Origin: Eledone cirrhosa | Lineage: Eukaryota | Assembly (NCBI GenBank): GCA_964016885.1 | Contig: OZ024741.1 | Location: forward strand, 14,570,001-14,634,000 | Direction: 5' to 3' | Length of the DNA stretch: 64,000 nucleotides | Part shown: positions 237 through 60,225 of the stretch, in pieces | Layout: each line of letters begins with the position of its first letter | Numbering within the stretch: position 1 is the first letter of the stretch | Notes under the pieces: generated by a model | Database searches by the model: none | Seen by the model: only the letters and a program-made list of their open reading frames with translations | What the model was told of the DNA's origin: nothing | Translations under genes and position numbers: made by a program

Positions 237-470
237 TAATAATAATAAATTTGAAGACTAAAATCCAAATAGGGCTCTATAAGGATAAATATATATCAGA
301 TATATAAGAACAATAGAGCAAATATTTATTAAAATAACAGATTAAAGTTTAAGCAAAGAATCGCTGCTTTAACCCTTAACGGGATCTTCTGAAAGAGTTT
401 CAGAAGATCCCGTTAAGGGTGAAAGCAGCGATTCTTTGCTTAAACTTTAATCTGTTATTTTAATAAATAA
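237..470. mobile_element. Fold-back element, family A (Penelope pLTR-like)
   Basis: Inverted repeat ~324-394 / 398-469 centred on GAAAGAGTTTC. The left arm continues as a longer tail (237-325) whose reverse complement matches 46120-46220 and 16670-16770. Abuts (TA)n. Confidence 0.75.
396..446 (+). ncRNA. Type I hammerhead-like motif with variant core CAGAAGA
   Basis: AGTTT-CAGAAGA-TCCCgttaaGGGT-GAAA-GCA(9 nt)TGC-TT-AAACT. Stems I, II and III all pair; core position 4 is A instead of U. Confidence 0.55.
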
Positions 471-620
471 ATATATATATATATATATATATATATATTA
501 TTGAAGGCGGTCACCCGGACTGGCAACAGCTAATTTTTTGGCCGCCTTCTCGTCTTGGGCATGTCTCTACTTTTCAGTCCCTTGGATTGTGTCTATTATA
601 TTCCTTTGTTAAATTACGGA

Positions 621-678
621 ATACCTGATGATGTCACCGGATTCATACTAAACCCGGTCATTGAAATGTTCATAGTAT
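621..678 (+). ncRNA. Type I hammerhead ribozyme motif
   Basis: ATAC-CTGATGA-tgtcACCGG..CCGGTcatt-GAAA-TGTTCA-TA-GTAT, with AATAAA at 679. Lies in a ~375-bp unit (500-875) between two TA tracts. Confidence 0.75.
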
Positions 679-950
679 AATAAACCTTTAAGGAATTACA
701 CCAGTCCAGCCTCCTGTTATTTTATAATAATTAACTCCGTACTCGCACCGCCAACAACACAAACGAAGACGGGTAAGTTGCATTACGTCGAGTGCTCTCC
801 ATAATATTACATCAAGGTTGACTATACGGAATGACCAGTTCTATCCAGTGGTGAAGCAACAAACCTAAATGACGGTATATATATATATATATATATATAT
901 ATATATATATATATATATATATATATATATATATATATATATATATATAT

Positions 951-1458
951 ATTAATAAAAGATCGGAGGCCGTATTTAGTTAGTTCTGGTTTATTTAAAA
1001 CTCCGTTATACATATTTCACTGAGGACTATCAGTTTAGATAGCCTGAGCTCTTCAGACGGCAAAACCTAAAATAAGCATTGGCAGTTCCTAATAAACGTT
1101 TAAATTTGGCAAAATAGGTCCGCCTATCGAAGAAACAACACCACACCAACGGCCCCCTGTATCATGAAAAGAAAATCTTTTTCGGTGAGATTATTAGATT
1201 TTTCCAAATTTAAGTGTTTCTTAGGAACTTTTAATGTTTATTTTAGGGTTTGCCGTCTGAATAGCTAAGGCTATCTAAACTGATAGCCCTCAGTGATATT
1301 GTGTAAAATGGAGTGTTAAATAAACCTGAAACAACTGAATGTGGCCTCCGATCTATTATTAATATATAACGCTCCGTCTTGTACCATTTATACAGGTCGT
1401 TGATCACTTCTTTTTATCTGCTTCCGCACAACCCTGTTCTGTTAACCCAATATATATA
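951..1458. mobile_element. Fold-back element, family B
   Basis: Diverged inverted arms ~951-1115 and ~1197-1366; right arm continues into a tail; TA tracts on both sides. Confidence 0.7.
1003..1060 (-). ncRNA. Type I hammerhead ribozyme motif
   Basis: Minus strand: CCGT-CTGAAGA-gctcaggCTATCtaaactGATAGtcctcagt-GAAA-TATGTA-TA-ACGG. The mirror copy at 1253-1311 has a mutated core (CTGAATA, GATA). Confidence 0.75.
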
Positions 1459-57045: not shown

Positions 57046-57299
57046 CAAAAAAAACAGCAACAACACAGTACAATGAAGGAATGTATTAGTTTAACGTTTG
57101 ATATAGCTGGAAAAGTCATTACGTTTCGGACACTAGTGTTTCATCAAAAGATAGAATAAGAAATAAAACATGAAATATAAAGATAGAGAAGAAGAAGGGC
57201 CGGAAAATTTTTTTTGTGAAAAATCATGTTTGTATTTAATTAGCTATTCTGGGGATACACACACACACAAACAGAGAGACATATATATATATATATATA

Positions 57300-59685
57300 C
57301 TAGCAGAAGTACCCGGCGTTGCCCGGGTGTAAGTCGACCTTTGGTCTGTTGTTAAAATGTTTGAAAGTTACTTCCCGCGCATCACAGGTACAAAAACATT
57401 CGAACCTCAAAGAAAAAAACAGAGGTTAGTATACGCAGGTGTGTAATTGAGCATAAATAATGGATCAATTGTAGGTTCAGAGTGTATCGTTGAAATTGTT
57501 CTTTGCAAGACTGACGGAAGTCAAATTCACTTGAAATTGAATTTCAGTTGATTTTTAAAGCAGGGTTAAAAAGTCGATTTTTTTCAATTTGTTTTTGTTT
57601 TTTACAACTTTGGCGCTCACATGTGCAGAAGAAGAAATAAAGGGGACTTTATCTGAATCGCGGCATAATGGAGGAATCATTTGCGACAGTTTTCACGAAA
57701 ATCGGACGTTCCTGTAAAAAATTATCCCATCTGCAACTTTGCCTTGTTTTTTGCGCAAAGTCGAAACCCGCTTCAGTTTTATTGATTTTTTCATGAATGC
57801 GTAACCTCTGAAGTAGATTTGAGTAGCTAAAGACCTATCCCGGTAAATTTGCTATATGTGAAAAAAAGTTGATCAAAATTGCATCTAGGATTATTGCCCT
57901 TTGCAACAGCCTCAAGAACATGTAATTAAAAAGATTTACCATGGACTATCGTGCACGTTGGTATTGTGTTTAGCCTGCGAAAATCAGTGATCAAATGAGG
58001 CAACAATAAGCCATACTGATGACGTTTAAGCGGGTGGCAAGGAATTGATGCGGCATAGATAGCCATGGGAGTCTTGAAGGAGCACGGCGGTCAGGCAAAA
58101 GAAAGGGCCGAGGAGAGGATGGTGGCTGACAGTGCATGGAGGCGGCATCCTGAGGCATGAAGATGTAGTGGGGCGACGGCCAGCAGGCAAGGAAGAGGGC
58201 ATGGGTGGACGGTGGCAAGGATGCCGCATGGTGAGCCATGGCAGTCTTGAAGGAGCACTGCGGGCAGGAAAAAGAAAGGGCCAAGGAGGGGATGGCGGCT
58301 GACAGAGCATTGATGCGGCATGGTGATGCATGATGATGCAGTGGGGCGACGGCGTGCAAGGAAGGGAGATGGCCGGGATTGACGGTTGCAGGGATTCCGC
58401 ATGGTGAACCATGGCACTCGTGAAGGACCAAGTCGTGCGGGTAAGGGAGAGGGAAGGGGAGGGCATGGTGGCTGACAGAGCATGGATACGGCATGGTGAG
58501 GCTTGACGATGCAGTGGGACGACAGCGTGCAGGGAAGGGAGAAGGAAGGACTTGGTGGTGGCAGGGATGCGGCTGAGTTAGGCAAGGCAGTATTGAAGGA
58601 GCACGGCGGGCAGGCCAAAAAAATGGCTGAGGAGGGGATGGTGGCCGTCAGGGCAGTAATGCGGCATGGTGAGGCATGACGTTGCAGTGGGACGACGGCG
58701 TGCAGGGAAGGGAGAGGGCAGGGGTTGACGGTGGCAGGGATGCGGCTTGGTCAGGCCTGGAAGTCTTGAGCTCTCCCGGAGTGTAGGCAATGGAAATGGG
58801 CAGGGGTGGACGGTGGCAGGGATTCGGCATGTTGACCCGTGGGAGTCCTTAAGGACCACGGAGGGCAGGCAATGGAAAGGGCCGGGGAATGAATTGCAGC
58901 TGACAATGCAGAGATGCGCATGGTGATGCACAACGATGCAGTAGGTCGACGGCGTGCAGGGATGGGAGAGGGCAGAGTTTGACGGATGCCTCATTATGCT
59001 ACGGTAGTGGGACCACGGGAATGAAGGGAGCGCATGGAGGCTCGATGATCGCTTGAGAAGACTGGGTGTAATACAGGATGATGCGCGGCGGTATAGTGTT
59101 GATATTCCTTATATAAGAAATGGAAGAATCGGTATAGAAGGTTTGCTGAATATGGTGAGCGTTAATTTAAAGAGACTTACGGTGGATAATCCTGATAGAT
59201 TGAACATTTTTTGCATGGTGGGAGTCGCGACAAATGTAAGCAAGAAGAATGGCGTTTTTCGGTTGCCGGATTTTTGCCTCTGGGGGTCCGATTATCGATT
59301 TTCTTTTTACAATTTCAAGTATCCCACGTTAATCCCCGCATCAAAATACATACCTACGTCAAATTTCATTGGAATCAGACAAAATTCGTAAACATCGATG
59401 TTTGCCTTTGGTGATCCAATTATCGATTTTTCGAAAATTTAATGTAGCGCACGTTTATCCCCGAATCAAAATACACACTTGCGTCGATTTTCATCGATTT
59501 TTGAAAATATCGATTTTTTGCTTCTGGGGTCCCGATTATCGATTTTTCGAAATTTTCAAGAAGCCTATTCCACTCTACGCGTTGAGTTTTATATACGTGT
59601 GAGGTATCATGAAAATTGGATGAACTGTGTAGCATGCAAGTTGGGAACACCAAACAATGCCCATCTTCACTTTATATATATATAT
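57300..59685 (-). mobile_element. Non-autonomous Helitron-like element
   Basis: Minus-strand 3' end: hairpin CCCGGgcaacgCCGGG, then CTAG (57300-57303) followed by T. Other end reads TATATATAAAGTGAAGATG; the 5' TC is not seen. No Rep/helicase ORF. Confidence 0.65.
58030..58990. repeat. GC-rich ~174-bp tandem repeat (~5.5 diverged units)
   Basis: GTGGCA(A/G)GGA anchors at ~58034, 58212, 58385, 58558 and 58731. Confidence 0.85.
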
Positions 59686-59751
59686 ATATATATATATATA
59701 TATATATATATATATATATATATATATATATATATATATATATATATATAT

Positions 59752-60225
59752 ATAGTTAAAGAGTGAAGAGTAACATGGTTCGCTGTACAATAAGGGGCTT
59801 TATTTAAAGTACTGACAATTGTTTCGTTGATCAGGTGAGTCTAGAGTTCGCTATTCGCTTGAAGTTGCGTCACTCGATCTCCATATATACGTACTCTTAT
59901 GTGTTGACCAGAGGTAAATAATGTATTGGAGATCAAGCGATGCAACTTCAAGCGATTAGCGAACTCTTGACTCACCTGATAAACGAAACAATTGTCAGTA
60001 CTTTAAATAAAGCCCCTTATTGTACAGCCAACCACGTTACTCTTCATTCTTTAACTATTATTACTCCAAGTATAACCTGCATAGGAATTACCGCGATCTC
60101 GCTGCATAACTATGGAAGCATCTTGTTGAGTCAAACAAAGCCGTACGTTAAAACTATCCACGACGCAGAGTACTCACAACCTCTAACTGGATTACCTATA
60201 ACGATAATTTGTTTTCCCATATATA
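59752..60225. mobile_element. Fold-back element, family F, with degenerate hammerhead
   Basis: Arms ~59752-59883 / 59927-60058; GTACT-[CTTATGT]-long stem II-GAAA-CAATTG-TC-AGTAC at 59891-60001; AATAAA; tail to TA. Confidence 0.7.

Follow-up and report, generated by a model that had tools for sequence, protein, structure and literature searches.

A stretch of 64,000 nt from the genome of Eledone cirrhosa (assembly GCA_964016885.1, contig OZ024741.1, positions 14,570,001 to 14,634,000), hereafter called the window, carries at eleven sites in its (TA)n tracts short non-coding units of one design, each with a type I hammerhead ribozyme or part of one, a tail and mostly an inverted partial copy. 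An initial annotation, made from the sequence alone, read them as ribozyme-bearing retroelements or Penelope remnants, which raises the question of what the units are and how their inverted structure arises. It is very probable that they represent 5'-truncated 3' ends, comprising a pseudo-long terminal repeat (pLTR) with hammerhead and a tail, of Penelope-like elements (PLEs) of the Hydra clade, as was shown for five families (A, B, E, F and I) and is likely for four others (C, D, G and H). Insertion into (TA)n was likely carried out by the elements' own reverse transcriptase (RT)/GIY-YIG protein.

Families, coding sequences and clade

The eleven sites sort into nine families (A to I), each dispersed through the genome. 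The claim of many distinct families was thus upheld, with nine rather than eleven, as the elements at 17294 (noted at 17295) and 25057 are subfamilies of A with 83% identity, and those at 237 and 45502 belong to one family, B. Genome searches for each family returned 502-3,720 first-look candidates, which are lower bounds, and 30 loci (numbered with an L) were kept per search. In the genomic copies the 3' end is fixed and (TA)n follows it, the 5' end varies, and an inverted arm is often present. TA followed the 3' end in 133 of 160 copies of A, 93 of 116 of B, 42 of 50 of C, 117 of 138 of E, 41 of 48 of G, 33 of 53 of H and 43 of 46 of I, with lower proportions in D (20 of 46) and F (13 of 34).

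The window itself holds no tblastn match to a Penelope open reading frame (ORF), as had been reported; its RT matches are to Pfam RVT_1, and the ORF at 26388-29000, which also has an APE-type endonuclease, is LINE-type. Upstream extension of the families elsewhere in the genome did reach Penelope coding sequence (the RT or the GIY-YIG part) in A, B, E, F and I, which bears out the Penelope reading and narrows it to the Hydra clade. A Hydra endonuclease (EN) was found upstream on the same strand in eight of the 30 loci of B, at a single spacing, in seven of 30 of I, in two of 30 of F and, after a second search, in 14 of 30 of E. In family A the pLTR runs straight into the start of a Hydra ORF in L337/L363 and L362, and other copies have the EN 1.5-2 kb upstream. 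An EN upstream of family G in L229 was not counted as linkage, being a single case with a TA run between. Similarly, the long upstream regions shared by copies of D (L310/L311) and of H (L312/L313), considered as possible element bodies, proved to be local or segmental duplications.

An EN fragment beside one A copy, used as a query, gave 54,495 candidates, among them open frames 809-821 aa long (L061-L063). These frames define a further family, K, which has no copy in the window and ends in a hammerhead-bearing pLTR that aligns with that of family A; in L062 a direct pLTR runs into the ORF. Full element lengths were calculated as about 4.1 kb for A and about 3.5-3.7 kb for K. Among the fetched loci, 116 distinct EN pieces formed 21 clusters at 72% identity and 336 distinct hammerhead motifs formed 56 clusters, 27 of them with at least two members. 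The element protein had 24 homologue matches, the sole named one being from Argonauta hians.

The K frames combine a telomerase-like RT and a GIY-YIG endonuclease in a single ORF, as do EN+ PLEs, and a fold search with an AlphaFold model of an 801-residue stretch (pLDDT 80) ranked telomerase RTs first to fourth. When solved structures were searched by sequence, the one match, to a retron RT, was weak (E 0.0096). The linked frames carry the motifs RW, DKT, CxCx5C, YxG, CxxC..E and CxH that are diagnostic of Hydra elements. At the N-terminus, K has RLRWT and DKT and A has RIRW (L337) and HKT (L362), those of E, F and I not having been recovered; the CxCx5C linker is present in K, A, B and I, and CxxC..E and CxH in K, A, B and E. 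Neptune identity, the first reading, was dropped after the motifs were compared with the Hydra description (Craig et al., 2021, PMC8557442). The CX2-5CxxC linker with CCHH endonuclease of Neptune, Nematis and Naiad was not found, nor was the N-terminal EN of Naiad; the linker is CxCx5C, the EN is C-terminal and the CCHH motif was absent by eye from the frames compared. Judged by these diagnostic motifs, the ORFs belong to the Hydra clade.

The published account of the clade agrees with the present elements in the C-terminal GIY-YIG domain, RW, DKT and CxCx5C, and the CxxC and CxH around conserved E and N. It also agrees in the type I hammerhead at the 3' end, in the targeting of (TA)n, in truncation at the 5' end with an inverted copy there, and in the tail at one end (PMC8557442). 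The pseudo-LTR, the inverted 5'-truncated copy and the one-sided tail are likewise PLE features. By eye, and in a supplement excerpt, the N-terminal half of Hydra-1_Obim from Octopus bimaculoides is collinear with the intact ORF found here, whereas its hammerhead matches none of the nine window families. Published Hydra elements measure 1.1-3.0 kb and include one octopus family (PMC8557442), compared with the lengths and 21 EN clusters given above, and tails are 59-160 nt here against the 30-40 nt given for PLEs. In a recent survey of 35 genomes, in which three insects and an anthozoan were the four invertebrates, a coral alone had Hydra elements (bioRxiv 10.64898/2026.07.22.740005). The L062 frame also has, at about residues 600-675, an N-rich low-complexity insert between the RT thumb and the endonuclease linker that is disordered in the model; N-rich inserts have been described in rotifer Penelope elements (PMC3846280).

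With a descriptor permitting bulges in stem II, nine type I hammerheads of canonical core were detected in the window, whereas 50 local dinucleotide shuffles of 500-nt blocks averaged 0.1 and never gave more than one. The count depends on the descriptor, since a stricter earlier version recovered just two of the nine. The other sites have a full fold with CAGAAGA (237 and 45502/46068), the 3' half only (12557) or a mutated core with a long stem II (59752). The repeated hammerhead design first noted at the eleven sites is therefore real, and the inverted partial copy was confirmed at nine of them, sites 500 and 53150 being solo.

The same descriptor found 60 motifs across 27 of 52 evenly spaced 10-kb stretches (520 kb) of the 3.0-Gb genome, compared with 0-3 in eight shuffles. 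This corresponds to about 115 intact motifs per Mb, and by extrapolation to about 340,000 genome-wide (bootstrap 215,000-475,000), a figure that counts motifs rather than insertions and excludes variant cores; a relaxed-core scan was noisy (2-8 matches in shuffles) and was left out of the estimate. The high density seen in the window thus extends to the genome, which likely holds a few hundred thousand hammerhead motifs of such elements. Totals reported elsewhere with different descriptors reach 120,000 in axolotl and exceed 6,000 in a coral (PMC7229834); for Xenopus tropicalis the figure is 9,000, within a range of 2,000-9,000 per genome (Cervera and de la Pena, 2014, PMC4209133), and for giant squid it is 235 Rfam matches (PMC6962438).

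Microsatellite targeting holds genome-wide, (TA)4 lying within 260 nt downstream of 50 of the 60 sampled motifs as compared with 26% of random positions. AATAAA or ATTAAA occurs within 45 nt after 25 of the 60 (6.8% of random positions), so its description as usual was an overstatement at the genome scale. The stems also passed the covariation check: in 16 motifs 94.7% of cells were paired and 15 of 19 pairs changed on both sides, a score reached by 0 of 500 shuffles, the test being partly circular since the descriptor had picked the set. When stem I was not required, 12 of 77 distinct combinations were fully Watson-Crick against 0.66 when permuted, and at least four of five pairs formed in 35 of 77 (9.6 permuted). 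The elements thus have the type I core CUGANGA...GAAA...UH with three covarying stems, and stem III was a short palindrome in 56 of the 60 sampled motifs. The minimal PLE hammerheads described earlier share the type I form, long stem II, short palindromic stem III, many families per genome, a U3-A8 variant and an arrangement mostly as solo copies or as opposite-strand pairs 100-700 bp apart (PMC4209133).

Two families form tandems with a type I hammerhead, non-coding in G and probably so in C; such tandems were not found in A, B, E, F or I. Family G occurs as direct dimers with a unit of 1,146-1,295 nt (about 1.28 kb) at nine of 30 loci, and the two units examined contained no frame longer than 75 codons and no tblastn match to PLE proteins. 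Family C gave a dimer at one locus, a 2,185-nt tandem with a 176-codon frame that has no PLE match. By their sequences G looks non-autonomous and retrozyme-like, and so, probably, is C, which is the less sure case because it rests on one tandem and that tandem contains a frame. The non-autonomous reading in the initial annotation therefore fits G and probably C, not the other families. Animal retrozymes derive from PLE pLTRs (bioRxiv 10.64898/2026.07.22.740005), and metazoan non-LTR retrozymes are type I-bounded non-coding units (PMC7229834), as are G and probably C. In contrast to the 150-450 bp retrozyme repeats, the units are 1.3 and 2.2 kb and occur as dimers, and most copies are truncated and two-armed like those of their autonomous relatives. 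G and perhaps C may be regarded as larger non-autonomous derivatives of the retrozyme kind. At L388:6638-7694 and L382:5268-6069 hammerheads recur in direct tandem every 528 and 467 nt, respectively, which is nearer to classical retrozyme size.

Paired 3' ends and altered cores

The 3' ends of each family fall at two discrete points, the short end 18-64 nt and the long end 97-223 nt past the cleavage site, with 59-160 nt between the two; the long end of family F is poorly fixed. Confinement of the tail to one end had been remarked qualitatively (PMC8557442, PMC3846280). Of 252 head-to-head pairs, 190 combined one long and one short end, out of 203 that could be classified; nine were long+long, four short+short and 49 unclassifiable. 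A recount with more loci and without family F gave 199 long+short, nine long+long, two short+short and 47 unclassifiable. In the systematic sample there were 14 long+short pairs and one unclassifiable, along with solo arms that were long in 15 cases and short in 16. Within the window, eight of nine pairs were assigned to long+short; the ninth, of family F, was left unclassified, its tail being split by a SINE-like repeat.

The arm reaching further 5' was the long one in 57 of 187 pairs, the short one in 70, and the two were similar in 60. In L361, for example, a 4-kb short-ended ORF arm is paired with an inverted 186-nt long-ended arm. By BLAST the junctions overlapped in 81 of the 187 pairs, mostly by 1-9 nt. 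The arms of a pair differ by 2-18% and share subfamily variants in A (524 of 549, compared with a proportion of 0.60 when shuffled), E (264 of 305; 0.56), I (201 of 231; 0.62) and K (73 of 74; 0.63), and no cross-family junction was found among the two-armed pairs analysed. Among the 786 arms, 599 run through the cleavage site, and a start no more than 3 nt away from it is seen in just 12, as compared with 11-20 in neighbouring bins; this read-through and the lack of an excess of 5' ends indicate that the copied templates were uncut at their 3' hammerhead. Family E has a strong truncation hot spot within stem II, where 101 of 171 arms break off at 35-42 nt 5' of the cleavage site; the hot spot recurs more weakly in B. 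Different hammerhead families are also stacked in the same TA tracts, each TA-flanked (L006, L010, L012, L024, L027 and L315), suggesting repeated insertion into tracts beside earlier copies.

The hammerheads of A, C, D, F, G and H are canonical, with the core intact in 42 of 46 rows of C, 63 of 63 of G, 31 of 39 listed of D and 37 of 41 of H, these rows not being deduplicated across overlapping loci. Three families retain the fold with an altered core, namely B with CAGAAGA (U4A) in 72 of 80, I with CTGATGT (A9U) in 27 of 35 and E, in copies longer than that of the window, with CTGAGAA (G8A) in 26 of 29 parsed. In family E, C3 faces A8, which breaks the C3-G8 pair, and a sister copy shows the compensated U3-A8 form; further U3-A8 families and a second U4A motif are also present. 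Stems I-III and GAAA are kept in B, E and I, which are ORF-linked and young, their best copies being 95-100% identical and those of E 100% identical over 129 nt at eight loci. Changes in the hammerhead core are generally held to impair cleavage. Since core positions have changed, B, E and I are predicted to cut poorly and their self-cleavage is doubtful, and the view that their hammerheads function non-catalytically is about evenly poised.

Single G8 or C3 changes abolished cleavage in an anole Penelope element (PMC11167929), and some natural core variants stay active (PMC3088659). All 26 Hydra hammerhead rows in File S2 of PMC8557442 read CUGANGA, unlike B, E and I, and families with U4A, A9U or uncompensated G8A are not mentioned in the available part of PMC4209133.

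A proposed insertion mechanism and its alternatives

The paired ends would be explained if the endonuclease nicks TA-rich DNA, as is established for the clade, and the two fixed 3' ends seen in the DNA of each family are, as is likely, two internal RT start sites. On RNA from a single source, each target strand would then prime a cDNA of its own, one strand using the long site and the other the short, and both cDNAs would abort early and join head to head, often over a few shared bases, to give the long+short fold-back; this step is somewhat favoured by the evidence. The RNA copied was uncut at its 3' hammerhead, as the arms spanning the cleavage site indicate, and it may follow from such uncut templates that self-cleavage is not needed for insertion, a step for which belief and doubt are in balance. 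In that case the fold might persist chiefly for its structure or for dimerisation next to the RT starts, or else so that tandem transcripts are occasionally processed. G, and probably C, would be non-coding derivatives mobilised in trans.

A biochemical precedent is available in PAc, the Poseidon element of Anolis carolinensis, in which two internal RT starts bound the tail, the AT-rich target is cut on both strands, the RNA template is uncleaved, a protein dimer is predicted and hammerhead catalysis is dispensable in vitro (Frangieh et al., 2024, PMC11167929). PAc differs in belonging to another clade, in having a short tail and in showing no strand-specific start site in vitro (PMC11167929). 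The pLTR of PAc overlaps the ORF start, whereas the long end of family K lies 78 nt before the ATG.

Several observations weigh against this account or parts of it. Long+long (9) and short+short (2-4) pairs exist as exceptions, and the concordance of arms is marginal in H, while in B, C and G it failed to exceed every shuffle. The ORF link of family F rests on two loci, and none was found for D and H in the fetched loci. Pfam gave no match for the intact ORF and one sub-threshold GIY-YIG match on another frame. Most isolated motifs fold no more stably than their shuffles, z falling below -2 in three of ten. Canonical cores in most families, together with the compensated U3-A8 cores, argue for selection on catalysis in much of the clade.

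It is improbable that the units form a separate class of short, retrozyme-like elements, non-autonomous and hammerhead-bearing, that spreads as small circular RNAs or as miniature inverted-repeat elements. A window without a Penelope ORF, the non-coding tandems of G and C, the 528-bp repeats of L388 and the unlinked families D and H would suit such a class, whereas five families run upstream into Hydra ORFs, the units end well past the cleavage site with variable 5' ends that do not peak there, and the G and C units far exceed the 150-450 bp repeats reported for retrozymes (PMC7229834). Assembly artefacts or chance motifs in AT-rich DNA can practically be dismissed. Long-read chimeras can fold back, and the relaxed-core scan gave spurious-looking satellite matches in L406; the arms, however, differ from each other and carry different family-specific ends, unlike a read artefact, and a chance origin of the motifs is refuted by the shuffled counts for both the window and the sample. 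In the contigs of four sequencing runs over 59756-60218, no listed piece clearly bridges the inversion junction. The whole 10 kb of L406 is a satellite with a period of about 277 nt whose 19 relaxed-core matches, all CAGAAGT with very weak stems, are probably spurious.

For the inverted arm, self-priming by fold-back of a single cDNA or antisense template, the interpretation given to head-to-head geometry by Arkhipova et al. (2013, PMC3846280), would agree with the shared subfamily variants and the overlapping junctions. A fold-back of a long-initiated cDNA cannot, however, extend the short-ended arm further 5', as is seen in the 70 pairs noted above (e.g., L003 and L361), and a short-initiated cDNA has no template for the tail; self-priming is accordingly considered unlikely. 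As to the ribozyme, all hammerheads, including those with U4A, G8A and A9U, might be active in vivo as dimers or with the aid of protein, cutting tandem transcripts to unit length. Their stems and GAAA are kept and covary, the palindromic stem III is what PMC4209133 describes as a sign of dimers, another Penelope element has been shown to cleave with the help of protein (PMC11167929) and some natural core variants retain activity (PMC3088659). The absence of an excess of 5' ends at the cleavage site does not fit this proposal, nor does the broken C3-G8 pair of family E, whose copies are nonetheless identical at eight loci, given the effect of single changes at these positions (PMC11167929), and universal activity is thus rather doubtful although well short of improbable. 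Asymmetric double priming on an uncut template is retained here as the preferred explanation. The combined proposal, rather less likely than not, is advanced tentatively, namely that dozens of Hydra-clade families produce one of the densest hammerhead loads on record, that the U4A, G8A and A9U hammerheads of three independently successful families serve as scaffold or dimerisation signal rather than as cutter, and that the long+short rule reflects asymmetric double priming.

These elements are not a new class, because Hydra elements, their hammerheads, their (TA)n targeting and an octopus family have been published (PMC8557442). New in relation to the literature searched are the families, their abundance, the counted long+short rule and the fixed core variants; that search, which lay outside most subscription papers, Dfam and Repbase, found no report of octopod hammerhead density, of a counted long+short rule or of U4A, G8A or A9U Penelope families. 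The function of the hammerhead in EN+ Penelope elements has been called unclear and the mechanism of tandem and inverted insertion listed as unsolved (Craig et al., 2021, PMC8557442). The value of the present material lies in its scale and in its natural experiments. With insertions numbering in the hundreds of thousands, the rule behind the inverted structure can be counted; sister families whose cores are canonical, compensated (U3-A8) or uncompensated permit a direct comparison of cleavage, the successful altered-core families B, E and I are a natural test of the need for a ribozyme, and intact clade ORFs are at hand for in vitro work. If the non-catalytic reading is true, a Penelope hammerhead would be shown in nature as an RNA scaffold or dimerisation signal and not a cutter; if asymmetric double priming is true, the long+short rule would be the genomic footprint of insertions in which the two target strands prime reverse transcription from separate sites on one RNA.

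The short pieces escape Rfam gathering thresholds and largely Pfam, and may therefore be mislabelled in repeat annotations. No hammerhead family was among the 150 listed of 314 Rfam matches in the window, and none was found at gathering score in nine loci. Neither ribozyme nor hammerhead appears as a word in the main text of the Octopus vulgaris annotation paper PMC13282606.

Hammerhead elements and other features of the window

The sites first noted were correctly placed (Table 1), and several elements proved longer, D extending to 1452, F starting at 44462 and G near 52556. Family B has three copies beyond the noted sites, at 16633, 45165 and 46371. The long tail of the F element (44462-44582) is split off by a SINE-like repeat at 44590-44767, and the core of the I copy is the family core CTGATGT mutated further.

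Table 1. Hammerhead-bearing elements identified in the window, with their arms and cores.
Family	Position	Arms and strand	Features
B	237..462	Two-armed; long-ended arm -, short-ended arm +	Full type I fold; CAGAAGA (U4A) core 401-407
C	500..875	Solo, 5'-truncated, long 3' end; +	Canonical core at 625
D	951..1452	Two-armed; short-ended arm -, decayed long-ended arm +	Canonical core 1056 (-); no ORF link
E	12557..12765	Two-armed; both arms truncated in stem II	Hammerhead 3' half only
B	16633..16768	Extra solo copy, long end; +	Truncated inside hammerhead
A	17294..17713	Two-armed; long end left, short right	Two complete canonical hammerheads, 17482 (-) and 17623 (+)
A (second subfamily)	25057..25506	Two-armed	Two complete hammerheads, canonical cores 25242 (-) and 25407 (+)
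F	44462..45137	Two-armed; decayed short arm +	Canonical hammerhead 44884 (-)
B	45165..45228	Extra solo fragment, short end; +	
B	45502..46222	Two-armed; short end left, long right	With 3'-UTR sequence; U4A core near 46068
B	46371..46528	Extra small two-armed; long end left, short right	
G	52556..53351	Solo, 5'-truncated, long end; +	Canonical core at 53159
H	53414..53672	Two-armed; short end left, long right	Canonical core 53513 (+); no ORF link
I	59752..60219	Two-armed; short end left, long right	Extended stem II region of about 80 nt

The sequence at 45321-45442 resembles by eye the long 3' tail of a tenth hammerhead family, and in the flank of L061 it leads, again by eye, into a hammerhead with a CTAG loop.

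The window is rich in simple repeats, and no tRNA genes were found in it. The SINE-like repeat of about 178 nt that interrupts the F element has about 11 similar copies in the window (e.g., 5459-5632, 12859-13032, 16770-16941 and 31158-31328) and 76 matches in the 520-kb sample. Pieces of LINE-type RT or APE endonuclease, unrelated to the hammerhead elements, are located at 26388-29000 (-), 1363-1977, 35336-36133, 37391-38428, 50325-51125 and 61540-61908. A 387-aa frame at 5787-6947 (-) has no Pfam match and presumably resembles a Chapaev-type DNA transposase. Finally, the LINE-like 3' ends at 23718-24937 and 29967-30577, which have a C2H2-like stretch, lie tail to tail across a TA/TATG tract and form the 610-nt inverted repeat of the window.

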